A DNA stretch of 64,000 bases from Phytobacter massiliensis JC163 (GCF_000321045.1 NZ_HE578947.1:3150-67149); one strand, 5' to 3'. Positions 13,309-53,139 are shown, numbered from the stretch's first letter. Notes: generated from the letters alone by a model not told the origin. A program made the numbers and translations.

Positions 13309-13345
13309 CGGCAGTCGTAGTTAAACGAAACAGACGGAACAGAAA

Positions 13346-32558: not shown

Positions 32559-32563
32559 GAGAT

Positions 32564-33790: not shown

Positions 33791-33794
33791 AAAG

Positions 33795-34598: not shown

Positions 34599-34640
34599 CC
34601 TTATCCGGGCTACTCTTTGTAGCCCGGCTCGGTTTTAAGG
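34598..34640. repeat. REP-type extragenic palindrome
   Basis: gccttatccgggctac...gtagcccggctc. The reverse complement (gtagcccggataaggc) recurs near 57745. Confidence 0.5.
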
Positions 34641-35090
34641 GTGGTATTGCCCACTGCTGACCAGCGCGTAGAGGTGGTTCGGTGAGTAGCGCCAGCTCTC
34701 ATTAAGCCCCAGAAACGCCGCGCAAAACTCGCTGCAAAACAGCCTGTTGCGATGCTCTTTGTTGCCCAATACAATCCCCAGCGCTCCCTGCCAGTCGTAG
34801 CGTTTGCCGTCATGCTGGCGGAAAAACGCCTCCACTTCCGGCAGACTTGTCTGCAATGGCAGCTTATCCCACTTATCATCCGGCAACGGCATCAGCTTGC
34901 CGCGTACGCCGCGATCGCGAAACGAAGCCGAGTAACAGAGGTACTCATTTCCGCCGCGCGCCACGGCCAGTTCACAGTGGGAGTAGATCCCACGCGTGAT
35001 TTTGCGGGTCAGCCAGTCGGCAACCCTGGCAATGCCCCGGTGCTCCGCCCGCCCTTTATAGCAGGCGAGCCAGACGGTGGCGTTACTCAT
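34635..35090 (-). CDS. YiiX/YaeF-like permuted papain-fold (C92) hydrolase
   Basis: It has ...RLFCSEFCAAFL (like the YiiX LYCSELV catalytic-Cys block) and an upstream ...GIYSHCELAV (His block). It is 72 nt downstream of the tail-fibre gene on the same strand. Confidence 0.5.
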   Translation of the reverse strand: MSNATVWLACYKGRAEHRGIARVADWLTRKITRGIYSHCELAVARGGNEYLCYSASFRDRGVRGKLMPLPDDKWDKLPLQTSLPEVEAFFRQHDGKRYDWQGALGIVLGNKEHRNRLFCSEFCAAFLGLNESWRYSPNHLYALVSSGQYHP

Positions 35091-35161
35091 GGCTGCCAGC
35101 CTGGGGTGTAGTCGTAAAATGATTTTTGATTAAATATGATTCCATTTTATTTATCCTGTTA

Positions 35162-36835
35162 TTATACAGTAATGGCTTGTGGGCGAATTTCTCCATACAT
35201 ACCAGTGACTGCATTAGTGAAAAGCTGCCTTCCATATTCTTCAGGATCATCTTTTGACGCGGTAAATAAAATCTCTGTACCTATTCCTTCGATATCACAG
35301 GTGAAATTGATAGAGTTATATGTTCCCTCATTTAAATCTTTATAATTAGCGTAAGGATTTCGTATATTCTTTACTCTAGAGGTATTACCTATAGGGACTC
35401 GTTGGATTAACATGTTTGTAGTCAAATATTGATGGAGCACATCCGTTTTATCATGCTGTGCAGCATTGCATGTCCACCAAATTCCTGGTAAATAGGCAGT
35501 TGCATTCATGTTTTTACCCATGGAAAAGCCTGGCCCCGATAAAAAGCAGCAAGAGGATAAAGTACTGCCAGCTCTAATTTCGCCTTGCTTTATATCATCT
35601 ATTTGATTAAGACTTGATTGGGTATTCTTTATAAATGGAACAGTAGCTAAACAATACGCGCCATCCCCATTTACCTTAGGGTAAAGCCCCTTAATTTGAT
35701 CGGCAGTATGAGTATGATTCGCCGGTGCCGCCGCATTCGCCTTGTCCATCGCCGCTTTCACCGCGCTCGGCGTCGCCGCTTCGGTGGTGCTGGTGCTGTT
35801 AGTGGCATTATTCAGCTTCACCACCCCTTTCTGGGTCAGGGTGCCATCCGGTACGCCGGTGACCTGATTCCAGGGGTGGGTGTGGCTGGCCGGTGCGGCC
35901 GCATTCGCCTTATCCATTGCCGCTTTCACCGCGCTCGGCGTCGCCGCTTCGGTGGTGCTGGTGCTGTTAGTGGCGCTGTTCAGCTTCACCACCCCTTTCT
36001 GGGTCAGGGTGCCGTCCGGTACGCCGGTGACCTGATTCCAGGGGTGAGTGTGGCTGGCCGGTGCGGCGGCATTCGCTTTATCCATCGCTGCTTTCACCGC
36101 GCTCGGCGTTGCTGCTTCGGTGGTGCTGGTGCTGTTGGTGGCGTTGTTCAGCTTCACGATCCCTTTCTGGGTCAGGGTGCCGTCCGGCACGCCGCTTATC
36201 TGGCTCCAGGTATGGGTGTGATTACGCGCTTCGGCCAGCGCTGCTTTCACCGCTTTCGGCGTGGCGGCTTTGGTTTCGTCATCGCTGTTGGTGGCGTTGC
36301 TGAGCTGCGTAAAGCCTTTTTGCGTGAGCGTGGCGTCCGGGTGTCTGGTGGAGTGCTCGTGCTCATCCAGCAGCGAATCCACATAGTCGCGGGTTGCCAG
36401 CACCACGCTGGGGTCAACGGTCAGGGTGACCGCCGTGGTGTTGGACACTTCCATAATCAGACGAATGCAGACCTGCTTGCCGCTGCCGCCGGGCAACAGC
36501 GGCTTGTAGGACTCCGGGAACTTGCCGATGGCGATCAGATCGCCGTCGGTGTCGAATACCCCCACCTCGCGCACGTACCAGCCGCCGATGTTTTCCGGCA
36601 GTACTACTTCGGCAATCAGCCAATTGGGGTTATTGGGCGCGACCGTCAGGGTATTCATCTCACCGCGCCAGACTTCGCGACGTAATTTCGTCTGGTTAAC
36701 GGCAGGCTCATAATATTGCCCGCCGCCGTCGCCAACCGCCATCTTTTGCAGATGCAGCTGTTTTTTCTCCGCCAGCGCGGCGGCGATTTTCGCCATCCCC
36801 TTATTGGTCAGGAGAGTATAAAATTCATTATCCAT
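35162..36835 (-). CDS. phage tail fibre protein (P2 gpH-like N-terminus, repeat region, low-GC C-terminal receptor-binding domain)
   Basis: The N-terminus (...MAVGDGGG...WRGEMN...IAEVVLPENIGGWYVREVGVFD...ESYKP...HPDATLTQKGFTQLSNATNS) resembles P2 gpH. It has P2 fibre-repeat units TLTQKG.VKLN.ATNSTS..EAATPSAVKAA. Confidence 0.85.
   Translation of the reverse strand: MDNEFYTLLTNKGMAKIAAALAEKKQLHLQKMAVGDGGGQYYEPAVNQTKLRREVWRGEMNTLTVAPNNPNWLIAEVVLPENIGGWYVREVGVFDTDGDLIAIGKFPESYKPLLPGGSGKQVCIRLIMEVSNTTAVTLTVDPSVVLATRDYVDSLLDEHEHSTRHPDATLTQKGFTQLSNATNSDDETKAATPKAVKAALAEARNHTHTWSQISGVPDGTLTQKGIVKLNNATNSTSTTEAATPSAVKAAMDKANAAAPASHTHPWNQVTGVPDGTLTQKGVVKLNSATNSTSTTEAATPSAVKAAMDKANAAAPASHTHPWNQVTGVPDGTLTQKGVVKLNNATNSTSTTEAATPSAVKAAMDKANAAAPANHTHTADQIKGLYPKVNGDGAYCLATVPFIKNTQSSLNQIDDIKQGEIRAGSTLSSCCFLSGPGFSMGKNMNATAYLPGIWWTCNAAQHDKTDVLHQYLTTNMLIQRVPIGNTSRVKNIRNPYANYKDLNEGTYNSINFTCDIEGIGTEILFTASKDDPEEYGRQLFTNAVTGMYGEIRPQAITV
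35717..36220 (-). repeat. three tandem 168-bp (56-aa) repeats inside the tail-fibre gene, plus a degenerate fourth unit upstream
   Basis: The units HTHPWNQVTGVPDGTLTQKGVVKLN.ATNSTSTTEAATPSAVKAAMDKANAAAPAS are near-identical at the DNA level. The same relationship appears on the opposite strand as the RRRFGGAGAV runs in ORF 35696..36685. Confidence 0.85.
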
Positions 36836-36837
36836 AA

Positions 36838-37470
36838 TTACTCCGGGTAAATAGACGTAATTTCAAGGCTCCATTGCCCTGTGCCAAAATAAACTGGCTT
36901 AGTTTGTTGAACTTCCAGTACCTGGAAGGGTGAAATAGTGGTAATTTCGCCGCCAAAAAGGGCGCAGCCCAGTACCGGTATTGCGCTCTGGTTAATAATC
37001 CAGATAATCAGTGCTTCCAGCTTTGAACGCACATTTTTATATTCATGAATCAGCTCTACCAGATGATTAAAAAGCGGTTCATCGATGCCATTGTTAATAA
37101 GCTCAATTTCAATTTTGAAAAAATACGCTTTGCCACCGTATTCAAACCATTCGGCAATAGTGCCAGGTAACGATAATATCTCCAGCACGCGACGAACGGC
37201 CCAGGGCGTCCCTTTATATTTGTGCAGCTCAATGGCCTGCTTGATTAATTCCCGCTTCTCCTTTTCATTGCGGGCGAATAACCAGCCCTCCAGTCCCTGC
37301 ACATGAAACTGTTCGGCCAGCGAAGGCAGCGCAGAGGCGTCAACCAGATCCACCAGGTAAATAAGCAGCGCCGTCAGATCCATTTGTGCGAAGCGTTCGG
37401 CGGCGATGTTCGCCAGAAGCGAAAAGCGCTCATCGCGGGCAAGCGGCGGCGGCAGATGCAATTTATCCAT
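36838..37470 (-). CDS. phage baseplate/tail protein gpI-like
   Basis: It sits between gpJ and the fibre as in P2 (J-I-H). It is 210 aa, and its start overlaps the gpJ stop. Confidence 0.7.
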   Translation of the reverse strand: MDKLHLPPPLARDERFSLLANIAAERFAQMDLTALLIYLVDLVDASALPSLAEQFHVQGLEGWLFARNEKEKRELIKQAIELHKYKGTPWAVRRVLEILSLPGTIAEWFEYGGKAYFFKIEIELINNGIDEPLFNHLVELIHEYKNVRSKLEALIIWIINQSAIPVLGCALFGGEITTISPFQVLEVQQTKPVYFGTGQWSLEITSIYPE

Positions 37471-38475
37471 CGCTCACTCCGGCAATCGTCACGTCAATAA
37501 TGATGCATTCCGCCCATACATGCGCCAGCAGTTCACGTTTGGCAGGCTGTTCCAGCGCCACGTCGTAAACGCCATCCACCTGCAGCACTTTGATTATCTG
37601 ATTCGGCACAATATCCTGGCCGAGCCGCGTCTGGCGCTGCTGGGTCCATGCTTCAATTGCCGCGCGGGCGGCGGCAAGGGTGGCCGCCTGATCGGCATGG
37701 GTAAAGAGCGTCAGCCGGGCGCGAATCTGATAAGGCACCCGCGGCGGCAATTTGACGCTGACCTTATCGGTCAGCGGGCGCTTTTTGTCCTTGCCCACTT
37801 CCTGCTGAATTTGGGCAAGCAGTTCCGTCCCCGGCATGCCGTTCAGCGTCAGTGGATAGATCTCCACGCAGCCTTCCGGCAACCCTTCATCCGGCCCCAG
37901 TATCGCCACGTCGATAATTGACTGGCTGACGGAAAGCGTATGAAAACGGTATGCCCCGTAGCTGCCTGCGTTACTGAAACTTTCTGGTGCCAGCCTGATA
38001 CGCTCCCGCAGCGCGTCGTCGCTCTCTTCATCGCAACCGCCAGCCGAGGTCGTCAGGTTGGTTACCTTCACCGGATAGCTGCTGATCCTGTCCATCAGGG
38101 CGCTGATTTGCGCAGGTTCCCAGCCGTTGCCCGCTTCACCGGTTACAAGACAGGTGGCGGTGACAGCCGCCTCTGGCTTGTTGGGCAGAACCCTGACATC
38201 CTCTTCGCTGGCTGAGCGGGCAGGCGGTGAACGCCAACCAGTTCGCCTAAATAATCCAGCATGGGGGCGCGGGAATAGGCCACCAGGTTTTGCTTCGCCG
38301 CCTCCTGAATGGCGATGCGGACAAGGTTTTCACGATAGGCAATCAGGTCGATAAGCAGCCGCTCCGCCTGTGCCGGATAGAGTTTTTTACCGCTGGCCTT
38401 TTCATATTGCGCGATTATCTCGCTGGTAATTTGCGCGGGGTCGCGGTCGATAAAATCGGGTTCGGCTATCGCCAT
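37463..38475 (-). pseudogene. phage baseplate assembly protein gpJ-like; frame interrupted (ORFs 38143..38475 and 37463..38095, with a third frame carrying sense between them)
   Basis: The N-terminal ORF (MAIAEPDFIDRDPAQITSEIIAQYEK...LVGVHRLPAQPA) becomes nonsense after about residue 94. The C-terminal ORF (...ESFSNAGSYGAYRFH...) resembles P2 gpJ. Between them the frame ...VLPNKPEAAVTATCLVTGEAGNGWEPAQIS reads sensibly, which implies two single-nt gaps near G/C runs (about 38200 and about 38098). Confidence 0.7.
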
Positions 38476-38825
38476 AACACCTCCGTAGAGTTAATAACGC
38501 CGTCTGCGGCGCGCCATTGCACATGAAGCGTCAGGTGTTCGCCGTCAATCGTCGGCGTCACCTTGAGCAGGCGGCAACGTGGCTCCCACATGCGGATCGC
38601 CTCCACCGACTCCCGTACCACGTGCGGAATAGCTCGCTCGACGGGATAGTCGATATAGCGCCACAGGTTGCTGCCAAACAGCGGTCTGTGAGGATCGCTG
38701 CCGCGCGGCGTGCGCAGGATGATGTGTATTGCCTGATGAATATCGTCCAGCCCGCAGACATATTCTTCAGGGCGCTGCAGGGCAGGTTGCCAGTGCAGGG
38801 TTGAGGGTCGTGTTTTCGTGTTCAT
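38466..38825 (-). CDS. phage baseplate protein gpW/gp25-like
   Basis: 119-aa protein of GPW/gp25-family size. It is in the V-W-J order of a P2 baseplate module. Confidence 0.75.
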   Translation of the reverse strand: MNTKTRPSTLHWQPALQRPEEYVCGLDDIHQAIHIILRTPRGSDPHRPLFGSNLWRYIDYPVERAIPHVVRESVEAIRMWEPRCRLLKVTPTIDGEHLTLHVQWRAADGVINSTEVLWR

Positions 38826-39001
38826 GCGGCTATTTTCACCTCAACGGAGGCGGCGCGATATTAAAGCGCTTTAGGAAAGGAGTTGATTAAAGAGAGAAAA
38901 ATCGCCGCATCGGGCGTCCCGGATGCGCTTCGCTTATCCAGGCTACAGTTAGCGGCAGGAGGCGCACCCGGGAACCCCGGATACGCCGTGCGGCGGGTGG
39001 G

Positions 39002-39745
39002 TTAGTGAGAGTGGTGGTTTGAGTTGCCGCCGCTGTCCATAACTGAACCGCTGGCTTTTAGGTTGCCCTGAATATTAACGTTGCCGGTGATCACCGCACT
39101 GCTGCCAGCGCCGCTGCTGCCTGCCATGCCGCCAAGCCAGGTCAGTTTTTTCATCACCGTAACATTGCCGGTAAAGGTGCTAATCGGCGCATCCACCGTT
39201 ACATCCAGCGCTTTAATGCCGGTACGGGCAGCCTCCACGCTGACATCAACGGCCTGTACCGCCACCTGGCTTGCCTCCACGCTCACGTCAGTGGCCTTCA
39301 CGCTGACCGTCTCCGAGGTCACATTTACCTGTTGCGCTTTTACCTCCACCAGCGGCGAGGTGAGGCGGGTACTCTCTTTCACCTCAATCACTATCTTTTC
39401 GATACCGCCGTTGATGGTGAGCTGGTGCGATTGACGATCGTATTCAAAAGCCGCGCCGTCGGAAAAATGCACGTAGCGTTTGTCGCGCGAGGCCAGCGGC
39501 GCGGTGTCAACCGTGGAGTAAACCGCCCCCAGCACCACGCCGTCTTCACCGTTGTCATCAAGCAGAACCTCGACCTGTTCGCCCATATCCGGCAGCCAGT
39601 AGTCTTTGTTGTCCTGCGTATTGCGCTGCAGAACCGGCAGCCAGTTGCTTTGCAGATTATCGCACTCCGGCAGAGTAACCCTGACGAGAACCGTGGTCTC
39701 GTCGATGTCGCTGATAATTCCCGTCTGGCGGGTAACGCCTTTCAT
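39002..39745 (-). CDS. phage baseplate spike gpV-like
   Basis: It has an N-terminal OB-like domain followed by short V/S/T-rich beta-helix repeats (VNVTSETVSVKATDVSVEASQVAVQAVDVSVEA...) and a Gly-rich C-terminus with HHSH. Confidence 0.75.
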   Translation of the reverse strand: MKGVTRQTGIISDIDETTVLVRVTLPECDNLQSNWLPVLQRNTQDNKDYWLPDMGEQVEVLLDDNGEDGVVLGAVYSTVDTAPLASRDKRYVHFSDGAAFEYDRQSHQLTINGGIEKIVIEVKESTRLTSPLVEVKAQQVNVTSETVSVKATDVSVEASQVAVQAVDVSVEAARTGIKALDVTVDAPISTFTGNVTVMKKLTWLGGMAGSSGAGSSAVITGNVNIQGNLKASGSVMDSGGNSNHHSH

Positions 39746-39754
39746 GTCGTCTCC

Positions 39755-40795
39755 TTACTGGCTGGTCGCCGGTCCGCGTGAAATGTCGATTTCGGTGGTA
39801 TAGCCGCTGCGGGTAAATCGATGCATTGATTTATCAATCAGCCACTGGCCGGACAGAACGCCGAAGCCGGTCAGTTCGATTTTGTTCCCCGCGGTCAGCT
39901 GCGGGCAGCCCATCAGGCTCAGCGTGCCGGTCTGCTGATACTCGTTATGGCTGTCCAGCGCGGCGTTGGCTTTCGCCTGCGCCGCGCCGGTATCGGGCGC
40001 GCGGCTGTTGAGCTTGAGAGTATCGGCGCTGGTTGCCGCCCCCCTGGCCGACGGTTTTTGCTGGCTATCGTGGGTATAAATAACCAGCTCCTTTTTCTTG
40101 CCGTTTTGATGTTGTACGGTGGCGTTCTTATAGATCCGGTTGATGGTATCGTTAAAGGTGTAATGGCCGATATCCGTCCGATCGAGGGTTTTCACCGGCG
40201 CAAGGCAGCGCAGCGAAGGCAGATGTGAAAAGACAAGCTCCGCCGCCGTCACCTTGACGGTGTAGCCGTACTCACTGGCCAGACGCTTGAGAAACGCAAT
40301 ATCGGTTTCCGCGTACTGCGTTACCCGGTCAATGTTCAGGGTAGCGATGTGCCCCACCAGCTTTAAGCCGTGCTTTTGCGCAATACGGCTGGCGATGGCG
40401 GCAAGGGTGGTCTCTTCAAACCCCTCGCTGTTTCTGGTGCGCAGCGCTTTGCTGACCGAGGTGGCGATGCCGTCAATATTCACCGTGGACGGCGGCGCGC
40501 TGATATCAATTTTATCAATGATATAGACGCCGCAATCCAGCAGTTCCTCCCCCTGGTAGCCCAGATGCAGGGCAAGGGTATCGCCTTTGCCGGGATACCA
40601 TTCGTTCACCCAGCGGCCTTCGCTGTCTTCCAGCGTAATGGCGATAACATCCGACTCGTTCTTGATGCTGTCGCTGTAGCTGATGCTAGTGACATAAGGG
40701 GCGATATCGTAAGTAATATCCTTATGCCCGTACCAGAGCGTAAAAATGGGCGTTAGCGTGGCACAGACGCCGCCGGACAGGGTTATCTCAGCCAT
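39755..40795 (-). CDS. phage late-control gene D (gpD)-like tail protein
   Basis: 346-aa protein. It is in the tape measure (gpT)-U-X-D order. Confidence 0.7.
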   Translation of the reverse strand: MAEITLSGGVCATLTPIFTLWYGHKDITYDIAPYVTSISYSDSIKNESDVIAITLEDSEGRWVNEWYPGKGDTLALHLGYQGEELLDCGVYIIDKIDISAPPSTVNIDGIATSVSKALRTRNSEGFEETTLAAIASRIAQKHGLKLVGHIATLNIDRVTQYAETDIAFLKRLASEYGYTVKVTAAELVFSHLPSLRCLAPVKTLDRTDIGHYTFNDTINRIYKNATVQHQNGKKKELVIYTHDSQQKPSARGAATSADTLKLNSRAPDTGAAQAKANAALDSHNEYQQTGTLSLMGCPQLTAGNKIELTGFGVLSGQWLIDKSMHRFTRSGYTTEIDISRGPATSQ

Positions 40796-40992
40796 GGCGC
40801 CAGCTCCGTTGTGGTCTGCGTGGCGCGCACGACAGGGATGATTAACCGTACGCCGGACGGCAGCACCGCCGTGATGGCAACATGAGGATTCGCGGCGATA
40901 AGCCGCTCATAGGCGAGGGCGTCGCCATAGTAGCGCCAGGCGAGGTTGTCCCAGCGCTCCCCCTCTGTGGTGATGTGTTCAAGGTAGCGCAT
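40783..40992 (-). CDS. phage tail protein gpX-like (LysM-like)
   Basis: 69-aa protein with ...WDNLAWRYYGDALAYERLIAANPHVAITAVLPSGVRLIIP, which fits the P2 gpX pattern (...ICVRYYG...LAANPGL...LP.G..). Confidence 0.75.
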   Translation of the reverse strand: MRYLEHITTEGERWDNLAWRYYGDALAYERLIAANPHVAITAVLPSGVRLIIPVVRATQTTTELAPWLR

Positions 40993-41945
40993 TACACCCT
41001 CCTCGTGACGATCGCGGCGGCGATAAGGCTGGTCGCCGTGGTGGTTTTTTGCACGCTGTTACGCGCCTCGTTGACCTGCGAAGCGGCGTCGTTGAAGAGG
41101 GCTTCCGCCGCGCTTTGCTTGAAGGTGTCAAACAGCGATTTGGCATGTTCAAGCAGCGTGGTCGCGTCGTGGGCGCAGTCACGGATGCCCGGCAGGCTGT
41201 CGATCAGCGCCTGGATTTGCGCGGAGAGCGCGGCAGGCATTGCCGCCAGCGTTTGTAAATCCAGCGGCTGGCGCAAAAGCGCCTCCGTTGCGTCGATGAT
41301 TTTTTTCAGCGTATTGATGGTGTTGATGCACTTCTCTTTCAGCGCCTTCGCCTCCTTTATCAAATCTTTTGCCTGCGCGACCATTTTTTTGGCCTCCTCA
41401 ATGGCGTCGGCTATATCGTCCATCATCGCTCTGGCGTCGCGCATTCCGTCTTCGATGGTCTTCATCAGGTCATCGAACCAGCTGTCGCCAAGCCGCGGGA
41501 AATCCTGCCACTGCTCATCAATATTTGGGTCCTGCGTTGAGACTGCGGGCGGCAACAGCGGGCTCTTCGGGTTACCGGTGTACTCCTGCAGCGACAGGCT
41601 ACCGCTCTGGGCAATCACGTTGCCGTAAGGATCGGTGTGCTGGTGGGTAGCCGTCAGGTCGGTTATCACGAACCAGCCGCGGTAATCGCCGTTGCCAAAC
41701 ACCAGCGCCATCGCCTGATGCGCGGTCATGGCTTGCCGCAGGCGGTTCAGCTCCGCTGTCGGCTGACAGTACTGGCTGTGGAAACTGAACTGCAGCGTAA
41801 TTTTGTCCAGCTTGTCGCCGATAAACTGCACCCCTGGTTTACCTTCGATACGGGCATGAGAGGCGTAATCCACGCCCATTGTGTTTTCGAAGCCGTCCCA
41901 GTAAGCAACGACCTCAAACTCTATTTCTCCTAATACGGCATACAT
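40992..41945 (-). CDS. phage tail protein gpU-like with a C-terminal coiled-coil extension of about 160 aa
   Basis: The N-terminal roughly 150 aa are gpU-like (...GKPGVQFIGDKLDKITLQFSFH..., ...GWFVITDL...). The C-terminus is rich in A/E/K/L heptads. Confidence 0.6.
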   Translation of the reverse strand: MYAVLGEIEFEVVAYWDGFENTMGVDYASHARIEGKPGVQFIGDKLDKITLQFSFHSQYCQPTAELNRLRQAMTAHQAMALVFGNGDYRGWFVITDLTATHQHTDPYGNVIAQSGSLSLQEYTGNPKSPLLPPAVSTQDPNIDEQWQDFPRLGDSWFDDLMKTIEDGMRDARAMMDDIADAIEEAKKMVAQAKDLIKEAKALKEKCINTINTLKKIIDATEALLRQPLDLQTLAAMPAALSAQIQALIDSLPGIRDCAHDATTLLEHAKSLFDTFKQSAAEALFNDAASQVNEARNSVQKTTTATSLIAAAIVTRRV

Positions 41946-44272
41946 CAGGCGTACCCCCGGCGCTGTTGCTGCGCCATCACATCGTTAATCATTTTTTCCA
42001 GCTGGTGTTTATTCAGCGCCAGCACCTTGTTGACCTCTCCGGCGGCATTCGCGCCGTTCCCCTGGACGGTGACCTGCGGCGAAAAATGAACCTGTACATT
42101 CCCCTGAGCGCGCGGCGGCAATACCAACGGTTTCGCAGCGGTTTTTGGCGGTACGCTAAGAGGGGAAGGTGTGACAGGCGATTTCGCCCCTGTCGCGAGT
42201 GGCGGAGGAACCGGGCCAGCCAGCGCCATTCCGGCGACGCCCGGCATTATTGCAGCGCCCTGTGGCTCAACGCTGATGCCAATAACTTTCTTCAACCAGT
42301 CCGGGATATAGCTTTTTATCTTGCTGAACACCTCCCCCAGAACGGGGAATGCCTTCACCAGGCTGTTAACCAGGCTACTTATCATTTTGCCGCCGAATTC
42401 GCTAAAGCTGGCAGGCAGGTCAATGCCGAGCCAGCTCATCAAACCGGCGAACGCTTTGTAAAATATGCCCAGCGGCGACCAGTCGAGAATGAACGCCGTA
42501 ATGCCCAACACACCGCCAGCAAAGATCTCTTTGATGCGCTCCCAGAGTCCCAGAAAGAACTTTTTAATCGGCTCAAAATAGCGGTAAATCAGCAATACCG
42601 CGCCGACGATGACGGAGATAATGCGGCCCAGGGGCGTCATGAGCAGGAAACGGAGAACCCAGCGTCCCAGCGTCATAAAAACTCTGCCCAGCCCTTTTAG
42701 TCTGCTTCCCAGTTGCAGAAAGCCTCTGCCCAGCCCTTTCAGCCAGCCACCCACTCTCGACAGACCGCCGCCTAGCCCTTTCAGCGCGTTCCATGCTTTC
42801 CCGATGGCGCCGCTCAGGGCCAGGCGGGCTTTTAATTTGAGGAACAGATCGATCAGGCGAATAATTGGCGAGGCGACAAGGTTCGCTCCCAGCTTCAGGA
42901 CGCTGAGCGCGCCGTTGAACAGCCAGATTGCGCCGATAAATTTGGCGATGCCCTGTACCAGCGCCGGGTTATCACGCAGCCAGGCGCTGAACTGGCGAAT
43001 AAGCGGGGTAAGGCTTACCGCCAGATCGCCGATCGCCGGCATGAGCTGCAGGCCGACGGTGAGCCACAGATCGTTGAGCGCCAGCTGCAACGCTTTGGTC
43101 TGCTCAAGGGGAGAGGACATCCTGGTGGTGAAATCGCTGTCCAGCATGGTGCTCTGCCCGGCCTGCATATTAGACGTTTTCAGCTGCTGAAATTCGCCGC
43201 TGTTCGCCAGCATCGGCGCGAGGAAATCCAGCGTTTGCCTGTCGCCGAACATCTCGCCGAGATTAAATTGCGTGACCAGAGCCTGTAGCGCATCTGCCCG
43301 GGCGCTAAGATCGTCAATTTTCATGGCCTGCTTAAACTGGTCGAGGATCAGCGGGTTCATTTTCTGCAGCTGCATTTCGACGATATGGGCCATGGCCTGC
43401 GCCACGCCCAGGCCGTTTTGTTGGTGCTCCAGCAGCGAGCCCCGCAGATCCACCCCCTGGCTGGCAAACCAGTTATCCGTCTTCCTGGAGAAGGTGGTGT
43501 GCAGGAAATGGGCGAAATTATCCTCCGCAGCGGCAGCGCTGGGGGCGTTTTGCATCGCGATTTGCTGTGTCGCCGCCAGTTCCGCAAGCCCCTCTGTTCC
43601 CTGCGCGCCTGTCCGCGCGGCAAAGCGTTCAATCCACAGGGTTTGATCGGCCACGGAGACGCCGCCGTTCTTCGCGACGTCCGCCAGCATCGTCTGCGCG
43701 ACGTGGAACGCTTGCGGAGCAATATGCAACTGGTTGCGGGTCGAGATGGCCGCCTGCGCCCAGGTTTGCGCGCTGTCGCGGGTGGCGGTGGCGGCTTTGG
43801 CGATGTCGGGCATATAGCGGTTGAGCTCATGCAGGGAACGGATTCCGCCTTCCATCATCGTGGTGGCGGCATCCTGCAGGGCCAACTGATCCTGATTGAA
43901 ATCGAGGCTCCAGTCGCGCAGATTCAGGCTCAGAGCGTCGCGTGTATCGTCATCCATGTCGTTTTTGATGGCCATATTGACCATGCCGTCCTGAAACTCG
44001 AAGGGCAGCCGCCAGTCTGGCTGCTCTACCAGCAAAAGTTTGCCCATCTGACTGATAAATGTGCGGGTTTCGGTGAGCAAGGCTTCACGACGGTTGCTGT
44101 TTTCTTCCCGGCGTAAGGCGGATGCCGTTAGCTGCTGTGTAAGTCTGGTGATTTTTTCATGCTCAGTGCTGAGCGATTGTAACTGGCGGGCGTTACGTGA
44201 GCCGTTACGGGCAATTGCCTGCGTCAACGTCTCATTACGCGCCTGTAGCTGGGTCATAATGTCGTTGGCCAA
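41945..44272 (-). CDS. phage tail tape-measure protein
   Basis: 775-aa protein with an alpha-helical/coiled-coil N-terminus, a Gly-rich hydrophobic central region (...LKGLGGGLSRVGGWLKGLGRGFLQLGSRLKGLGR...), and a position between gpE/E' and gpU. Confidence 0.85.
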   Translation of the reverse strand: MANDIMTQLQARNETLTQAIARNGSRNARQLQSLSTEHEKITRLTQQLTASALRREENSNRREALLTETRTFISQMGKLLLVEQPDWRLPFEFQDGMVNMAIKNDMDDDTRDALSLNLRDWSLDFNQDQLALQDAATTMMEGGIRSLHELNRYMPDIAKAATATRDSAQTWAQAAISTRNQLHIAPQAFHVAQTMLADVAKNGGVSVADQTLWIERFAARTGAQGTEGLAELAATQQIAMQNAPSAAAAEDNFAHFLHTTFSRKTDNWFASQGVDLRGSLLEHQQNGLGVAQAMAHIVEMQLQKMNPLILDQFKQAMKIDDLSARADALQALVTQFNLGEMFGDRQTLDFLAPMLANSGEFQQLKTSNMQAGQSTMLDSDFTTRMSSPLEQTKALQLALNDLWLTVGLQLMPAIGDLAVSLTPLIRQFSAWLRDNPALVQGIAKFIGAIWLFNGALSVLKLGANLVASPIIRLIDLFLKLKARLALSGAIGKAWNALKGLGGGLSRVGGWLKGLGRGFLQLGSRLKGLGRVFMTLGRWVLRFLLMTPLGRIISVIVGAVLLIYRYFEPIKKFFLGLWERIKEIFAGGVLGITAFILDWSPLGIFYKAFAGLMSWLGIDLPASFSEFGGKMISSLVNSLVKAFPVLGEVFSKIKSYIPDWLKKVIGISVEPQGAAIMPGVAGMALAGPVPPPLATGAKSPVTPSPLSVPPKTAAKPLVLPPRAQGNVQVHFSPQVTVQGNGANAAGEVNKVLALNKHQLEKMINDVMAQQQRRGYA

Positions 44273-44368
44273 AGTAAATTCTTCCGTTTGATGGCCCGGC
44301 GGCAGGCTTTCTTGAAATGGCAGAGAAGGGGCAGGAAACCGGGCGTAAGGTTGGGAGACCCGCAGGCG

Positions 44369-44575
44369 TTACGCCTGCGAATCGTATTCGTGTTTTATCT
44401 GGGTGTTCGCTTCGTCCAGCCAGCGGGTGAAATCCTCAACCGCCAGGGCATCGATCTCACTGGGCGGAAAGCGAAACCATCTCGCCAGCAGCGCCATTGC
44501 CTGCCATAGCTGCGGCGGATTCTGTAGCCATACCGAGCATGGCCTGAAATCGCTTTTGCAGCGCCTGATAATCAA
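44369..44575 (-). CDS. gpE' -1-frame extension region (probable programmed frameshift product E+E')
   Basis: The -1 frame continues past the gpE stop and reads ...WFRFPPSEIDALAVEDFTRWLDEANTQIKHEYDSQA. Tail-chaperone frameshifting is conserved in this gene arrangement. Confidence 0.5.
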   Translation of the reverse strand: MIIRRCKSDFRPCSVWLQNPPQLWQAMALLARWFRFPPSEIDALAVEDFTRWLDEANTQIKHEYDSQA

Positions 44576-44774
44576 GCAGATCCATTTCCGCCAGGTCCTC
44601 CTGTACCAGGCCGGTCATGGCCGCCATCAGCGGCTCGTCCCACTCCTCCGGCTTGTCGCTGGCGCGTCGCGCATTACGCATGTCTTTTACTTTCAGGCGG
44701 CGCAGCGTCAGGGTTTCAATATGTTCGCCCGCCGCAGAGGTAAACGGGAATTGCAGAGTATATTTTTCGCTCAT
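44457..44774 (-). CDS. phage tail assembly chaperone gpE-like
   Basis: 105-aa protein between the tube and tape-measure genes. It overlaps the -1-frame ORF 44369..44575, which looks like an E' extension. Confidence 0.7.
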   Translation of the reverse strand: MSEKYTLQFPFTSAAGEHIETLTLRRLKVKDMRNARRASDKPEEWDEPLMAAMTGLVQEDLAEMDLLDYQALQKRFQAMLGMATESAAAMAGNGAAGEMVSLSAQ

Positions 44775-44815
44775 TTTATTATCCTTTTAATTTCGGGGCC
44801 GCAGCCCCGAATAAA

Positions 44816-45340
44816 TTAGCCGCCGATATTGTTACGGTAAGCCGTTAATTGATCTTCGCCATTTACGCGGAAGATATTCGCCAGATAATCCAGTTCGAGC
44901 AGCGTTTCGCCGTCTACAACCTGTTTGATATAGGTGCAGCCGAAGGCGCTACTGAATTCCGGGTTTTCATTCTGTTTAAACGTGCCCAGCGGATTCTTTT
45001 TAAACATCACGGTCATATGGGTGACCAGCGCCAGCTGATCGGCCCGACCCTGAGAGTTATAGCAGTCAACGTTTGAGCGGCACTGTAATGCCACGGCCTG
45101 CCACGGGTTGGCGGTTTTGCGCATGACATCGTGGTAAAACACGTTCCATTTGATTTCGCCTTCCAGCTTATCAAACCCGGCGGGCAGCTCGATCTTACCC
45201 ACCATCCCCAGCGCTTTATGCTCCTGCATAATCAGGCTAATATCCGGCAGTTTAATTTCGCTGGCGCGCCCTAACAGGTTATTGCCATCAAGATAAATAT
45301 TGGCGTTGGTAATACGGTTAATTTGAATTTTTCCGGCCAT
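44816..45340 (-). CDS. phage major tail tube protein (gpFII-like)
   Basis: 174-aa protein. It follows the sheath gene with a 1-nt overlap. Confidence 0.85.
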   Translation of the reverse strand: MAGKIQINRITNANIYLDGNNLLGRASEIKLPDISLIMQEHKALGMVGKIELPAGFDKLEGEIKWNVFYHDVMRKTANPWQAVALQCRSNVDCYNSQGRADQLALVTHMTVMFKKNPLGTFKQNENPEFSSAFGCTYIKQVVDGETLLELDYLANIFRVNGEDQLTAYRNNIGG

Positions 45341-46776
45341 TAGCTATTGCTCTCCAGAGAGACTAAATATTCAGAGGTAATTTCAGTTTCAAATGTCAGA
45401 CGTTCCAGCGGCGGCGGCGGCGTAAATTTGTAGTTAAGCAACAAATGACCCGCCGCCAGCTCCGTTTGTGAATTTCGCGCCGGGTCATACCAGCATTCGA
45501 AGCCCAGCAGCGCGCCATCGGCAATAAGCTTGCGCCCCCAGCCGTTCACTGATTCCGTCAGCGCGTCGATCAGCGCCTGGTTAATCGGCATATCCATAAA
45601 CTGCTGGCTGAAATAACGGATGGATTCATTAATCACATCGCCGGTACGCCGCACGTTTTCAAAGTTACGCATATGGGTCACGGTCGGCCAGGCGGCGGTG
45701 CGGTTGCCCCACAGGCGGTAGCCGGAACCGTAGCTGTTGAAAACAGTGGTGATGCCATTCTCATTCAGCAGGTTCACTTCGCTTTGCGGATCGTCAATCA
45801 TCGCCGACAGCGAACGCTCAACGCCGGTAATACCCTGGATCTCCTGATTGGAATTACTCCACCAGAATCCCTTTTCAATATCGACTTTGGCGCGCAGGCC
45901 CGCAGCGCGGGAAGAGAGCGGCTCCAGCACCTCGCTATTGGTTTCGCTGTTGAACGCTTTCACGTGCGGATAGCACAGGCGAGCGCGATCGGAACTGGTG
46001 TTGAAGTTGATCGTGCCTTTCGACCCGCGGCCCGCCAGCACCTGCTGGAAGGTGGTGCCGACAGGGGCGTCAATATAGGTAATGGCCCCCAGCTTTTCCG
46101 CCTGAGTGATGAGTTCAGTCGCCACGGTTTTTTGCGTACAGAAGACCGGCGCCAGCAGGATTTTGGGATAAAAACCGTACTGGGTATAGATATCCTGCAG
46201 GAGCTTCATCCCGGTGCGATCGCCCGCGGCGTTGATAGCGCCAATGATTTCCGACGCGGTAATTTTAGTTGGGTCGGTATAGGTAACGTTGGCGTAAGCC
46301 TGCGAGTTGGGTGTTAATGCGCCATTAAGGCAGGTCACTTCGCCAGTGAGCATATCCACGGTGTAATCCGTGCCCAGCACATAAGGCGAGCTGCCGTTAG
46401 AGCCACGGCTAATCACTACCGTTTGATAAGCCTTATTATTCGGCTGAATCTTCGCTTTTCCGTCCGCGTCAAAGCGAAGACTGATATTAGCGGTGACTTT
46501 ATGGAGAACAGGGCTGAGGACGTTAATAACAACGACCGTGCCTGCGCCGTGATCGTAAATGGCTTTCAGCGCTTGCGGAATGGTGAAGTTGGAAACATTT
46601 GCGCCAAACTGCGCCGCATCGCTTTCTGATAAGCACAGCGTCGGCTGGTTAACCGGGCCGCTTGGGGCGGTGCCGATCAGGGCAATAACGGCGGATTTTA
46701 CCGCTTTAATAGGACGCGGGCCGGTTTCAATTTCAATGGTTTCTACACCGTGCAGGTAATTAGCTGCCATGTACAA
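45340..46776 (-). CDS. phage contractile tail sheath protein (gpFI-like)
   Basis: 478-aa protein with the sheath-family C-terminal block (...GYRLWGNRTAAWP...). Confidence 0.9.
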   Translation of the reverse strand: MYMAANYLHGVETIEIETGPRPIKAVKSAVIALIGTAPSGPVNQPTLCLSESDAAQFGANVSNFTIPQALKAIYDHGAGTVVVINVLSPVLHKVTANISLRFDADGKAKIQPNNKAYQTVVISRGSNGSSPYVLGTDYTVDMLTGEVTCLNGALTPNSQAYANVTYTDPTKITASEIIGAINAAGDRTGMKLLQDIYTQYGFYPKILLAPVFCTQKTVATELITQAEKLGAITYIDAPVGTTFQQVLAGRGSKGTINFNTSSDRARLCYPHVKAFNSETNSEVLEPLSSRAAGLRAKVDIEKGFWWSNSNQEIQGITGVERSLSAMIDDPQSEVNLLNENGITTVFNSYGSGYRLWGNRTAAWPTVTHMRNFENVRRTGDVINESIRYFSQQFMDMPINQALIDALTESVNGWGRKLIADGALLGFECWYDPARNSQTELAAGHLLLNYKFTPPPPLERLTFETEITSEYLVSLESNS

Positions 46777-46963
46777 TTTCCTCTTCTTCTTCTGTAATTT
46801 CTGCCGCTTCGGTAATGACCGGCGTTAAATGACCGCGAGCAATCATGGTCATGACCCACTCGTTGTCCTCCGGCAGGGAGACTTCGCTGTCGGTCCACAA
46901 TAAAAGCTCTTCGCCATCGGCAAGGGTGACGCCGCTTGCCGGGCCGCTATAGATATATTTCAT
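46760..46963 (-). CDS. small acidic tail-module protein of unknown function
   Basis: 67-aa protein with a run EEEEEI. It is translationally coupled (ATGA overlap upstream, 17-nt overlap with the sheath gene). Confidence 0.45.
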   Translation of the reverse strand: MKYIYSGPASGVTLADGEELLLWTDSEVSLPEDNEWVMTMIARGHLTPVITEAAEITEEEEEIVHGS

Positions 46964-47412
46964 TGAATTTCCTCATAGTTAACGATGGTCAGCAGAGGGA
47001 GATCCTTGCTTTCCTGATTGGCGATAAACAGGGCGCTGGACGCCATTTCCAGGGCGTAACAGGCAAAGCCCGCGTTATTGCCGATGAACGTTTCGCTCTT
47101 CATCCACAGCAGGCGATCGCAGCCGGGAAGGGCGATACCGCCCAGCGTCTGGCGGGTCCGATCCAGGGCGTTAAGCGCATCAGCCTGCGGCGCGATGACG
47201 GTCGCGGTGAAATGGAGAGTCCGCCTCTGCACCACGGCGTCTGTGCTTTCGGTTGCCGCAAAATCGGCGCCGCTGTAATGAATGAGTACCGCCGGGCGGT
47301 TATTAAGCGGGATATAATCCGTTGCACTTTGCGTGGAAATAGATACATCCATATCCGGATTTAATTCGCGCAGATATTCCATCAGCGCCGTAATAACAGC
47401 TGAGGTTTCCAT
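46960..47412 (-). CDS. putative tail completion / sheath-terminator protein (DUF1834/gp37-like)
   Basis: 150-aa protein, the first gene of the tail operon upstream of the sheath gene. The family assignment is tentative. Confidence 0.4.
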   Translation of the reverse strand: METSAVITALMEYLRELNPDMDVSISTQSATDYIPLNNRPAVLIHYSGADFAATESTDAVVQRRTLHFTATVIAPQADALNALDRTRQTLGGIALPGCDRLLWMKSETFIGNNAGFACYALEMASSALFIANQESKDLPLLTIVNYEEIQ

Positions 47413-47638
47413 TTGGTGTTCTCCTTACTCTTTCACGGAGAATCACATTTCCTCTCCGTCACAGTTCGGGAGTATTCTGGCGTGATGGCGCGGTGAATGC
47501 TTTTAATCTGCTTTAAAGAAAAAAGTTAAAAGAAATAAAAAATCCCCGGCGTATTTACGACGAGGATTTATACCCTAAATAATTCGAGTTGCAGGAAAGC
47601 CAACGCTCATGCAACTTGAAGTATGACGGGGATTTAGG

Positions 47639-47953
47639 TTATGCACCTCCACGTTGGATCAATTCTATCTTGCTATATAGCGCATCCAGTTTGGCTTCTA
47701 TTACCGCCTGGCCGCGTAAATAATCTTCCCGGCGAACATAATGCAGCGGAAGATCGGCTCTGAATTCCAGAAATTCTCGTTCCAGCCTTGACCAGCCTAT
47801 TTCTGACTCCCGGCGGGCTATTTCCAGGGCTTCAAAGCGTTCGCTCAACCGCTTCTCTATTTGCGCCAGCAGCAGTTTACCGGCGGCAAACAGCAGCCCA
47901 ACAAAGGAGAGCAAGAGGGAGATAATTTCCCAGAAATCGATGCTGAGTTTCAT
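47639..47953 (-). CDS. type II membrane coiled-coil protein, putative i-spanin-like lysis accessory protein
   Basis: It has an N-terminal TM (IISLLLSFVGLLFAAGKLLL) followed by a charged coiled-coil. It lies directly downstream of the endolysin gene. Confidence 0.45.
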   Translation of the reverse strand: MKLSIDFWEIISLLLSFVGLLFAAGKLLLAQIEKRLSERFEALEIARRESEIGWSRLEREFLEFRADLPLHYVRREDYLRGQAVIEAKLDALYSKIELIQRGGA

Positions 47954-47966
47954 TGGCCTCCTCTGA

Positions 47967-48572
47967 TTACTGAATGCAGCTGGCGTGCCCCCACTGCAAA
48001 TAGCGGGCGGCGTGCTGGTATAAAATCACTTTTGGATAGTGACGGTTTTCCCGCCAGTTGGCGGCGCTGCGCCCGGCGTTGACCCGTTCCACATGATCAA
48101 ACCAGACTGTTGAATCAAGCCCTTTGGCGGCTGCCAGCTTTTTATCGCGGTTAACCCAACCCTGGCCGCCGTTATAGGCGCTAAGGGTAAAGGCCATACG
48201 CTGACAGCTGTCTTTCGCCGTGATGCCGCGCCAGAGTTGACGGTCGTACTGCACCAGCGCGCGTATCGCCCAGACCGGATTGAACGGCTTGTTTTCCCGT
48301 AGCTGCGGATAGAGCTGGCTTACCCATTGCGCTGTTGCAGGCATAAACTGCGCCATTCCCTGCGCGCCGACCGGCGAACGGGCCGCCGGGTTCCAGCCCG
48401 ACTCCTGATGTAACTGCCCGGCAAAATCAGCCACCGGGGCATTTATCCCCCAGATTTCGCGGGCGGTACGGATCAGTTCATTGCGCCATTTTAACGCTGC
48501 ACGCGGCGGTTCGGCGGCGTTGGCTGACAGGGCTAACATCCACAGCAGACAGATGCATGAACGCCACATCAT
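47967..48572 (-). CDS. phage endolysin, lytic transglycosylase (SLT domain) with a signal peptide/SAR N-terminus; start taken at MMWRS
   Basis: It has the SLT motif ...ESGWNPAARSPVGAQGMAQFMP.TA... and the signal-like MMWRSCICLLWMLALSANA. Its start overlaps the holin stop. Confidence 0.8.
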   Translation of the reverse strand: MMWRSCICLLWMLALSANAAEPPRAALKWRNELIRTAREIWGINAPVADFAGQLHQESGWNPAARSPVGAQGMAQFMPATAQWVSQLYPQLRENKPFNPVWAIRALVQYDRQLWRGITAKDSCQRMAFTLSAYNGGQGWVNRDKKLAAAKGLDSTVWFDHVERVNAGRSAANWRENRHYPKVILYQHAARYLQWGHASCIQ

Positions 48573-48859
48573 TACAGCCCCAGCGCGACGGCAAGGCAGA
48601 CGGCGGCCACAATGACGGCGCGACGGATCATCGCGGCGGCGCAGCATACCGACTCCTGCCACGGGCAAAAAGAGTCCGGACGGGCCCAGGGAAAAAGGCT
48701 GCGATCGAGCCAGTAGCCTAATACTGCCGACAGCGATACCAGACTGAGCTTATAGATGACGACCGGAATTTGCGCTGACGAAACCCAGCCAATAAGCGTG
48801 AAAAGAATAGCCGAGGCGACCAGCCAGCCGGAGAGGCGGGGGAAGCATGTTTTTTTCAT
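48572..48859 (-). CDS. putative holin (3 TM)
   Basis: 95-aa protein with three hydrophobic segments. It is immediately upstream of the endolysin and overlaps it. Confidence 0.5.
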   Translation of the reverse strand: MKKTCFPRLSGWLVASAILFTLIGWVSSAQIPVVIYKLSLVSLSAVLGYWLDRSLFPWARPDSFCPWQESVCCAAAMIRRAVIVAAVCLAVALGL

Positions 48860-49179
48860 ATGTATCTCCTGATAAACGGGAGACGAGTATGGGGTTTGCC
48901 GCGATCGTTAAAACGAAAAACGGTTTAATAAATAAGTTTAAAAAATGTATTTCCCCGTATCCCGCTAACGCAAGGCGATAAGACGAAACAGGAGAACAGC
49001 AACCGGCGATGATGGCTTGCCAGCAGGCTGTGCTGTTTGGGGGAAGAAGGCGGCGAAGAGGGCAGGAGCAAAAAAGAGGCTGTGTTTATATGATTGATTT
49101 TTAAAGTTTGTTTAATGAATTTCACCGCTGTGACGGCAACGATCTTTTTTGATCGCGCGCAGAAAAAAGCGTAAAAAAT

Positions 49180-49199
49180 TACTGTATATGCATACAGTA
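49180..49199. promoter_or_regulatory. LexA (SOS) box
   Basis: tACTGTatatgcatACAGTa is a perfect CTGT-N8-ACAG palindrome. It lies about 230 nt upstream of the Mor-like gene. Confidence 0.75.
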
Positions 49200-49429
49200 A
49201 TGTGTAAAATGGGGCCATCAGAAAGAGACCGCTCTGCCTGTAAAATATATTCAAATTGTGAATTAGAAATGTATTAAACATTTTTCTCTGAAATAATTAT
49301 TCCATCAGGGAAGTGTTATTTATTCGAATTATGAATGTATTTGCGGTTAGTTAACGCACCTGTTTTACGCGCTCCCTTTATACAGGCGATTCCGGGCAGC
49401 ACGGGGTGCAGGATATATGGAGATAACTT

Positions 49430-49777
49430 ATGATTCAAAAATCAAAAGAAACAGTTCGGGTGCCGGAGATCATCAGCGATCTGGCCTTTCACGCGTCGCA
49501 AATCCTTATTGAAAGCATGAATGTCGACAGCGCATCGGCAGAGAATGTCGGCCATGCCATCGCGGATCGGATGATGCGCAACTGGGGCGGGCAAAGCATC
49601 TACTTTCCAAAAGGGGTTTCAAGCCGGGCCTCCGAGCGGGATTACCAGATTTATGAAGAGTGTAATGGCCGCAACTATGCGGAGCTGGCAAGGAAGTATA
49701 AATTGACGCTGCAATGGATCTATAAAATTGTGAAGCGGGTGCATACCGAGAAACAGCACCAGCGGCGGATGCTGTAA
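49430..49777 (+). CDS. Mor/C-family phage late-transcription activator
   Basis: 115-aa protein with a C-terminal HTH (...YAELARKYKLTLQWIYKIVKRV). It is divergent from the lysis/tail operons. Confidence 0.7.
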   Translation: MIQKSKETVRVPEIISDLAFHASQILIESMNVDSASAENVGHAIADRMMRNWGGQSIYFPKGVSSRASERDYQIYEECNGRNYAELARKYKLTLQWIYKIVKRVHTEKQHQRRML

Positions 49778-49783
49778 ATCTGA

Positions 49784-49808
49784 CGGGCCGTATAGCTGTT
49801 ATACGGCC
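49784..49808. terminator. bidirectional hairpin between the convergent Mor-like and lysC genes
   Basis: gggccgtatagctgttatacggccc is an inverted repeat. Confidence 0.6.
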
Positions 49809-49816
49809 CTGCTCTC

Positions 49817-51166: not shown

Positions 51167-51189
51167 AACGACCTCGTGTCAGGGAAAGA

Positions 51190-51400
51190 AAAACGCGACC
51201 TGAGCACAAGGGCAGAAAAGAAACCGGTGCAGGCGCAAATACCGTATTTATAAATAAAATGTGTGACTGATACTGTCAACGCCGGGATTATGCGGATTTT
51301 TCATGCTGGGAGCAGGGGTAGTAATGGTGCTTATATGCTGGCGTTAAACGCTATACTTTTTACCCGTGTTTGATCGATGCGCAGGGAACGGCATTAAAAC
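51190..51400 (-). ncRNA. lysC 5' leader containing the lysine riboswitch (LYS element)
   Basis: The roughly 300-nt leader is conserved. Its end (CCCUGACACGAGGUCGUUAUG on the minus strand) matches the E. coli lysC leader end. I did not verify the riboswitch core motifs. Confidence 0.5.
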
Positions 51401-51472
51401 CCATCACACTTTTCTGTGTCTGGCGTTACAATCGATCCCAGTCACAATTCTCAAATCAGAAGAGTATTGCTC

Positions 51473-53119
<1,647 letters not shown>

Positions 53120-53139
53120 TGCGTTAATAGCCACAGATA

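Follow-up and report, generated by a model that had tools for sequence, protein, structure and literature searches.

A head-less BcepMu-like contractile-tail island beside lysC in Phytobacter massiliensis JC163, probably inactivated in this genome

Tailocins shape competition at the strain level and are in development as precision antibacterials. Carotovoricin is described as a Mu-type tailocin whose control is exerted by SOS/LexA (PMC13566846). Kosakonicin, from Kosakonia radicincitans, a species of a genus close to Phytobacter, is encoded by a head-less R-type cluster for which homology to phage P2 is stated; its fibre locus is hypervariable, and its tails have been observed by electron microscopy (PMC6629978). 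Here we analyse a locus related to these systems in a 64,000-nt stretch of the Phytobacter massiliensis JC163 genome (GCF_000321045.1, NZ_HE578947.1:3150-67149; hereafter the window). Exact protein matches assign the window to this species, which was previously placed in Metakosakonia or Enterobacter. Positions 34635-49777 code for a holin, a lytic transglycosylase with an SLT domain, a set of contractile-tail proteins and a divergent Mor-family activator, and contain a near-consensus LexA box (Table 1). Pfam and PHROGs profile searches place the tail island on the minus strand, from 48859 down to 34635, and Mor on the plus strand. We estimate at about 0.7 the probability that this island is a fixed head-less derivative of a BcepMu-like myovirus, that is, a Mu-type R-tailocin locus, and that the present copy, broken in the baseplate gene J, was recently inactivated.

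Chromosomal genes border the island: RtcR, slipin, RtcB and RlaP adjoin its left end and lysC-pgi its right end, and the left 30 kb of the window are ordinary chromosome, including aceAK, iclR, metH and a fimbrial operon. Its boundaries could be defined with metagenomic and genomic contigs that encode an identical LysC. In four of them the island has been removed: identity to the window ends at 49580 in two (L007 and L008) and at 49142 in the two others (L010 and L011), and returns in all of them at 34639, which sets the left boundary in deletion alleles at 34639/34640. Since these conspecific island-free contigs join lysC directly to RlaP, the island is confined to the interval between both genes, nothing beyond 34640-49579 is part of it, and head genes hidden just outside are excluded. 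No att-like direct repeats were found at its ends, and the whole 64-kb window contains no homologue of the terminase, portal, F, scaffold, capsid, gp36, transposase or invertase of Klebsiella phage KP12. An earlier note, made from the sequence alone, had proposed precisely such a head-less contractile-tail island, with its own lysis genes, Mor and LexA box, lying between chromosomal genes and devoid of head, terminase and integrase genes. The homologue search and the annotation of the flanks support this description, and the contigs joining lysC to RlaP dispose of the objection that the note itself had raised, namely capsid or terminase genes contiguous with the window. By contrast, its wording of an island “inserted” between rtc and lysC suggests a recent insertion, which is not supported because five genera or more have the island at lysC, with a divergence as large as that of lysC itself.

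In gene order and content the island follows the BcepMu-like phages, among them KP12 and a Pectobacterium prophage, with which it shares the succession Holin_2-3, SLT, Gp37, sheath, tube, E/E', T, long U, X, D, V, W, J, I and H, plus Mor. The lysis genes, Gp37, the tail block, the frames of E/E' and the Mor activator are homologous and similarly ordered in BcepMu, KP12 and the Pectobacterium prophage, and all the markers of the BcepMu lineage (Gp37, Holin_2-3 with SLT, sheath-first order, long GpU and Mor) occur in the window. However, in the phages the lysis genes are separated from gp37 by ~8 kb of Mu-type head genes (terminase, portal, F, scaffold, capsid and gp36), and the Mor homologue is the last gene of an early operon of ~10 kb that includes the transposase; apart from Mor, the window lacks both blocks. 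The absence of the Mu-type transposase and head genes sets the island apart from a phage: it is a derivative of the BcepMu-like lineage and not a prophage. In P2 and the R-pyocins, the baseplate genes V-W-J-I-H precede those of sheath and tube, whereas here sheath and tube come before the baseplate genes, so this is not the P2 order. The interpretation of the locus as a P2-like module placed under a Mu-type Mor activator, and hence as an unusual mosaic, must be abandoned, because Mor and the tail module are combined in the same way in KP12 and the Pectobacterium prophage, for which this layout is normal.

In the window, gpJ is broken into two open reading frames (ORFs; 38143-38475, 110 aa, and 37463-38095, 210 aa) that separately match positions 1-28 and 92-254 of the Baseplate_J Pfam profile. 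Alignment with four orthologues reveals a gap of 103 nt, a deletion that removes ~35 codons and shifts the frame, with a junction near 38201-38205 (GCGAAGA/GGATGTC) showing short imperfect microhomology. Compared with a second P. massiliensis genome (L012), the window is gap-free and 99.5% identical from the holin to the J break, and gap-free and 98.0% identical from there to the fibre. J has 371 aa in all nine contigs with an identical gpW that reach it, and is intact in 13 comparison loci (the four orthologous loci and these nine near-identical contigs). Proteins of the J family (P2 J, T4 gp6) form an essential baseplate wedge, so the frameshift should make this copy fail at baseplate assembly; it probably makes no particles and was recently inactivated. 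The contractile-tail gene set is otherwise present in full, and it is complete, J included, in L012, Salmonella, Superficieibacter and Dryocola. The gpJ listed in the earlier note is not intact, as the split Pfam match and the alignments with the orthologues and L012 show. Its proposal of a candidate functional tailocin is weakened accordingly: the note had named the inactivation of several tail genes as the finding that would speak for a decayed remnant, and one essential gene, J, is in that state.

Elsewhere in the window, metH (5677-9293) is split into ORFs of 727 and 479 aa by a frameshift at AAGAAAAAGG near 7830-7860, so that the gene is a genuine pseudogene or the sequence has an error in a homopolymer; as the frameshift lies at an A-run, the assembly may contain errors of this type.

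Beyond Phytobacter, the island stands beside lysC in Salmonella, two Superficieibacter species, Dryocola and E. coli NCTC9699. The head-less SLT-gp37-sheath arrangement is carried by 50 of 5,426 complete E. coli genomes (~1%), and close homologues of the sheath are annotated in Citrobacter, Enterobacter, E. albertii and Lelliottia. A contig scan with exact peptide words from gpD returned three loci only, and the wider distribution was obtained from the relatives of the sheath and from the survey of E. coli genomes. No exact match to the tube protein was found; the population data come from look-ups of identical LysC and gpW. Compared with four other genera, every gene of the island has a ratio of nonsynonymous to synonymous substitution rates (dN/dS) of 0.03-0.37 (at most 0.26 except for one gp37 comparison), with a dS of ~1 against 0.83-1.05 for lysC. 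This purifying selection, the LexA box retained in all copies and the exchange of fibre cassettes between strains mark a co-opted element maintained by selection and fit, for the family as a whole, the tailocin interpretation. With dS near saturation, transfer by recombination in the flanks is possible.

In P. massiliensis or its very close relatives, the locus occurs in four states. It is intact in L006 and L012 and lacks part of J in the window; L010 and L011 retain only Mor and the LexA box, joined to a diverged 3' remnant of the SLT gene, and L007 and L008 carry an allele of this same type in which mor is truncated as well. The SLT remnant (L007 11588-12157; L010 2996-3416) is ~75% identical to the SLT gene of the window, against 96-98% in the flanks, which suggests that island alleles move between lineages and that the site was once occupied in the L007/L010 lineages by a different, diverged allele. 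The family is conserved over long spans but often lost locally, and within P. massiliensis the locus is being lost. These four states offer a natural series for studying the loss of such weapons. Several short and unannotated GenBank records named Escherichia phage ECO95 1-6-1 and Salmonella phage S.Kent 1-2-1 (OR845311, OR845313, OR845696, OR850896, OR850955, OR851066 and OR851449) contain island-type fragments with 76-89% identity and could be host or tail-island DNA from phage preparations.

The divergent Mor activator and the LexA box announced by the earlier note are both confirmed. Mor matches PHROG 532 and, on an identical gene, PF08765; it is 46% identical to the last gene of the KP12 early operon, annotated as rdgB, and evolves with a dN/dS of 0.04-0.07. 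In the 570-bp spacer that separates it from the holin gene, TACTGTATATGCATACAGTA is the sole CTGT-N8-ACAG sequence in the 64 kb and agrees at 18 of 20 positions with the E. coli LexA consensus. The box is found between holin and mor in every lysC-linked copy examined, in a spacer otherwise 63% identical, and is absent from the phages examined and from the head-less Pectobacterium cluster. Promoter-like hexamers overlap it on both strands. A conserved TAAAAT lies 5 nt downstream of the box on the mor strand, and the opposite strand has a TTTACA-16-TACAGT match. A second conserved element, the A/T-rich block at 48924-48948, is nearly invariant in five loci within the same 63% identical surroundings, which makes it a candidate promoter or activator site for the lysis operon.

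The spacer where the head genes were lost contains a terminator-like hairpin with a T-run (47535-47567), followed by the motif CTTTTTTCTTTAAAGCAGATTAAAAGC (47499-47525). This motif is conserved upstream of gp37 in Salmonella, Dryocola, E. coli and the head-less Pectobacterium cluster, and is more diverged in two Superficieibacter copies; it is a candidate late promoter or activator site. Within the spacer, TTTTTTCTnnAAnCAGATTAAAAG is kept in both the lysC island and the Pectobacterium cluster, and is followed in the lysC islands by a -10-like element. In KP12 the same motif stands in front of the genes taken as scaffold and capsid, and a more diverged version occupies the equivalent place in the Pectobacterium prophage. 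The hairpin ahead of the motif in the lysC islands suggests that the lysis genes and the tail genes after them form two separate units. At the holin and gp37 promoters, the distances from the conserved motifs to -10-like hexamers proved inconsistent with a shared spacing, and we claim no defined Mor site. Rfam searches of the regulatory spacers gave weak, chance-level matches only. The segment 47575-47640, in the spacer of the lost head genes, resembles a fragment of the enterobacterial ERIC/IRU repeat; a weak Rfam V_AS5 match coincides with it. An ERIC-like insertion is also present in the holin-mor spacer of Superficieibacter electus (L003).

These elements can be assembled into a model. An ancestral BcepMu-like phage would have lost its early region (repressor, transposase and the rest), leaving mor beside the lysis genes, and its head block, between the lysis genes and gp37. 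In the intact copies, LexA bound to the holin-mor box would block the overlapping promoter or promoters; upon DNA damage, the removal of LexA would allow Mor to be made, and Mor would in turn switch on the lysis unit (holin, SLT and the 104-aa protein) and, from the motif before gp37, the tail unit. Tails would then assemble, the holin and the exported SLT enzyme would lyse the producer without a spanin, and the released particles would kill neighbours selected by the hypervariable tip of the fibre. In JC163, the process would fail at baseplate assembly through the J deletion.

The reading of the window as a tailocin locus with a broken J has to be weighed against several alternatives. The island might still be a functional SOS-inducible tailocin, either because the J deletion is an artefact or because the J fragments still work. 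All the other genes are indeed collinear and gap-free with the intact allele of the second P. massiliensis genome, and at least one frameshift of the assembly, that of metH, is probably a homopolymer error; but the lesion in J is a clean 103-bp loss with imperfect microhomology and not a homopolymer slip, and it costs ~35 residues and the reading frame in an essential wedge that 13 related loci keep at 371 aa, which makes a working copy unlikely. Slightly more improbable is a decaying prophage remnant that was never co-opted and has no host function anywhere. Prophage finders do label the island as a BcepMu-like prophage, its copies in E. coli and P. massiliensis include some with pseudogenes or large deletions, and most E. 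coli have no island; but such a remnant would hardly keep about 20 genes open with dN/dS of 0.03-0.37 at dS ~1 across five genera, a near-perfect LexA box in a spacer otherwise 63% identical, and the same two clean block deletions in all copies. A different contractile injection role, be it toxin delivery of the Afp/PVC type or the donation of tails to a tail-less element, could be imagined from the conserved distal 151-aa gene (PHROG 1128) and from the V-W spacer, which takes cargo in relatives (gtrABC, an AbiJ-like gene). However, Pfam and PHROG searches returned no AAA+ ATPase or toxin match, the gene set is that of a phage tail released by lysis, with holin and endolysin, and the window has no head genes; we regard this role as very improbable.

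Several points nevertheless weigh against the tailocin locus with a broken J that we prefer. Its lysis cassette has no recognisable spanin, a scan with promoter consensus sequences found no more promoter-like sites than in shuffled sequence, and the promoter and Mor-site assignments are candidate ones, drawn from conservation and consensus matching only. The pseudogenes in gpI and fibre of E. coli NCTC9699 indicate that decay is common in the island family. Assembly errors may occur, and the 103-bp loss, while not of the homopolymer type, is a putative one. The literature searches yielded no report of expression, particles or killing for this family. Even so, the island of the window is real and of a known type, and this copy of it is probably dead. 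A broader reading, which we advance tentatively and with the odds somewhat against it, is that the lysC island represents a Mu-type tailocin that is ancient in the Enterobacteriaceae and has been inherited mostly vertically. Its circuit would be minimal and rewired, a single LexA box controlling a cis-encoded Mor and, through it, two late units, with lysis proceeding without a spanin. Its range would comprise Phytobacter, Superficieibacter, Dryocola, Salmonella and a minority of E. coli, with Citrobacter and Enterobacter as probable further hosts, and its intact copies would represent an uncharacterised bacteriocin of major enteric pathogens. Were the intact copies active, a conserved tail bacteriocin triggered by the SOS response, and so far annotated only as a prophage remnant, would be present in Salmonella enterica and some E. 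coli.

Table 1. Features of the lysC-linked tail island (window coordinates).
Feature	Position	Strand	Evidence
151-aa terminal gene, moron-type	34635..35090	-	PHROG 1128, E 1.7e-57
Tail fibre, 557 aa	35162..36835	-	Phage_tail_fib N-terminal domain and four Phage_fiber_2 repeats
Baseplate protein gpI	36838..37470	-	Tail_P2_I, E 4e-34
Baseplate wedge gpJ, inactivated	37463..38475	-	Baseplate_J profile split over two ORFs
Baseplate wedge gpW (gp25-like)	38466..38825	-	GPW_gp25; PHROG 43
Spike gpV	39002..39745	-	Phage_base_V; OB domain, repeats, His-rich C-terminal end
Baseplate hub gpD	39755..40795	-	Phage_GPD
Tail protein gpX	40783..40992	-	Phage_tail_X, E 4e-22
Long gpU, 317 aa	40992..41945	-	Phage_P2_GpU on residues 6-123
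Tape measure	41945..44272	-	PhageMin_Tail
Tail assembly chaperones (E 44457-44774, E' extension 44369-44575)	44369..44774	-	Phage_TAC_7, Phage_P2_GpE
Tail tube	44816..45340	-	Phage_tube, E 1e-55
Tail sheath, 476 aa from ATG	45340..46770	-	Phage_sheath_1, Phage_sheath_1C
67-aa acidic protein	46760..46963	-	PHROG 895
Gp37-family (BcepMu gp37) tail-completion protein, first gene of the tail block	46960..47412	-	PF09646, E 3e-36
Spacer at the site of head-gene loss (hairpin, then motif)	47499..47567	-	Conservation, sequence
104-aa protein, N-terminal hydrophobic segment	47639..47953	-	PHROG 462
Lytic transglycosylase endolysin	47967..48572	-	SLT domain; PHROG 669
Holin	48572..48859	-	Holin_2-3, E 5e-27; PHROG 1528
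Conserved A/T-rich block	48924..48948	-	65-90 nt upstream of holin start
LexA box TACTGTATATGCATACAGTA (49180-49199) and conserved TAAAAT (49205-49210)	49180..49210	.	Sequence, conservation
Mor-family late transcription activator	49430..49777	+	PHROG 532, E 1.5e-37; PF08765 on identical gene

The minus-strand genes listed in the earlier note were recovered by the Pfam and PHROGs searches, with the reservations that gpJ is split and that the gene called spanin-like does not deserve this name. The island possesses its own lysis cassette, composed of an intact holin and an SLT endolysin, without a recognisable spanin. The holin is conserved over all its 95 aa in all loci, which rules out the frameshift hinted at by a truncated tblastn alignment, and the endolysin has an N-terminal signal-like sequence, its start (MMWRSC...) having been set by comparison of the loci. 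The 104-aa protein that follows (dN/dS ~0.05) is a homologue of KP12_277 conserved after the lysis genes. Its identity as a spanin is rejected, since PHROG 462 is not a spanin family, the protein has neither cysteine nor lipobox, and no lipoprotein partner exists among the ORFs of at least 20 aa in 47380-47990. The Rz-like spanin of related elements (PHROG 1403), the gene of which lies between the SLT and PHROG 462 genes in the Pectobacterium cluster, is absent from the island.

Within the tail block, the Gp37 protein finds its tblastn matches in BcepMu, phiE255 and KP12, and homologues of the 67-aa protein precede the sheath gene in KP12 and the Pectobacterium prophage. The sheath is 81-82% identical to the Citrobacter and Salmonella proteins, gpW is 97% identical to that of Salmonella, and the tape measure aligns over its full length to its orthologues (61-64% identity). 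E' extends E in the +1/-2 frame, and this relation, together with CGATTTCAG, is conserved in all relatives including complete phages; a -1 frameshift is excluded because the frames do not fit it, and the arrangement may represent an unusual programmed shift. The gpU protein has a helical extension of ~190 aa beyond the GpU domain. As PHROG 788 spans its full length and the KP12 counterpart has 294 aa, such an extension is normal for this phage lineage. The spacer between V and W (38826-39001) is empty in the window. In relatives it is a cargo site, harbouring the O-antigen glucosylation genes gtrABC in Salmonella (L001 14943-17778) and an AbiJ_NTD4 gene in the Pectobacterium prophage (L023 18123-18977).

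The fibre combines a conserved N-terminus, 168-nt tandem repeats (D1-D3) and a variable C-terminal tip of low GC content. No chaperone gene lies downstream of it in the window, and its tip is 42% identical to that of the equally chaperone-less fibre of the second P. massiliensis genome; other strains have different tips with DUF4376 or Caudo_TAP chaperones, tip and chaperone being exchanged as a cassette between strains. At the end of the island, the 151-aa gene, overlooked in the earlier description, encodes a homologue of Salmonella STM4198 without Pfam or NCBIfam match. It holds the same terminal position in Salmonella, Superficieibacter and E. coli, with dN/dS of 0.07-0.09.

Several observations concern the neighbourhood of the island. 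A slipin (Band_7) gene and an RlaP nucleotidyltransferase gene are paired beside its end in Phytobacter, Superficieibacter and E. coli NCTC9699 (window 31443-34598; L022 633-2557; L002 16805-18702), with RtcB between them in Phytobacter only, and E. coli has no RtcR. It may be that the pair is carried along with the island or that it marks a variable hotspot. On the opposite side, the lysC leader (51167-51472) gave no Rfam lysine riboswitch match upstream of lysC, even at E<=1, and alignment shows that the segment of ~230 nt annotated as riboswitch in E. coli NCTC9699 has no counterpart in the window or in Salmonella SARB27. The small RNA STnc430 (Rfam RF02053, 74.8 bits) is found at 53132-53293, downstream of pgi. 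The left flank contains, at 9980-15324, a fimbrial operon of the chaperone-usher type and of low GC content, in which genes for the fimbrial subunit, the usher and a PapD chaperone are accompanied by one for a LuxR-type regulator.

Among known loci, STM4198-STM4219 of Salmonella enterica (strain LT2 numbering) is orthologous to the island, lies beside lysC-pgi and shows ~80% nucleotide identity over 81% of the island. The Salmonella and E. coli islands have the same Mor, LexA box and layout (holin-SLT-104 aa, then Gp37 to fibre); in that of Salmonella, gtrABC is inserted after V and before W, J is intact, the fibre has a chaperone gene and the far flank is another one. In the literature searched, it appears only as a PCR target for serovars (STM4200) or as a “BcepMu-like prophage”, not as a tested tailocin, and our search found no paper that describes a tailocin at lysC in Salmonella or E. 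coli; a large survey of Salmonella has a bin of “tailocin/phage loci” but gives no details of it. The relationship with kosakonicin is more distant: orthology is unlikely, given its description as P2-like and the absence of Kosakonia proteins among the 120 closest sheath homologues. R2 pyocin and the P2 tail have, like the island, a contractile sheath and tube and P2-family U, X, D, V, W, J, I and E/E' proteins. R2 pyocin is inducible by DNA damage through an activator and released by its own lysis genes, which the island resembles at the level of its genes; the regulators differ, being PrtR/PrtN or Ogr in R-pyocin and P2, and a LexA box with Mor here.

Of the known systems, the closest is the head-less cluster of Pectobacterium brasiliense (L025/L026), which we take to be the locus of carotovoricin Er, presuming that it matches the published ctv sequence. 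It comprises Holin_2-3, SLT, PHROG 462, Gp37, a small protein and the sheath-to-fibre genes in the same order, with sheath and tube 72% and 77% identical to those of the lysC island, and the head block is likewise missing, with the same motif in the spacer before gp37. Head loss of the carotovoricin type, with a late-promoter-like motif before gp37, is thus found in the window; as the promoter of the capsid operon appears fused before gp37 in both, the two loci may share the event. They are not orthologous in locus and accessory genes: the P. brasiliense cluster adjoins a metalloprotease/type I secretion operon and the window island lysC, the former keeps an Rz-like spanin (224 aa) and a 103-aa gene that the latter lacks, and Mor and the LexA box, linked in cis in the lysC island, are both missing next to the P. 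brasiliense cluster, the activator RdgB and repressor RdgA of carotovoricin presumably being encoded elsewhere. The island belongs to a known class, the SOS-inducible contractile-tail bacteriocins derived from BcepMu-like phages, in which the pairing of a LexA box with a cis-encoded Mor and the loss of the spanin are modest variations.

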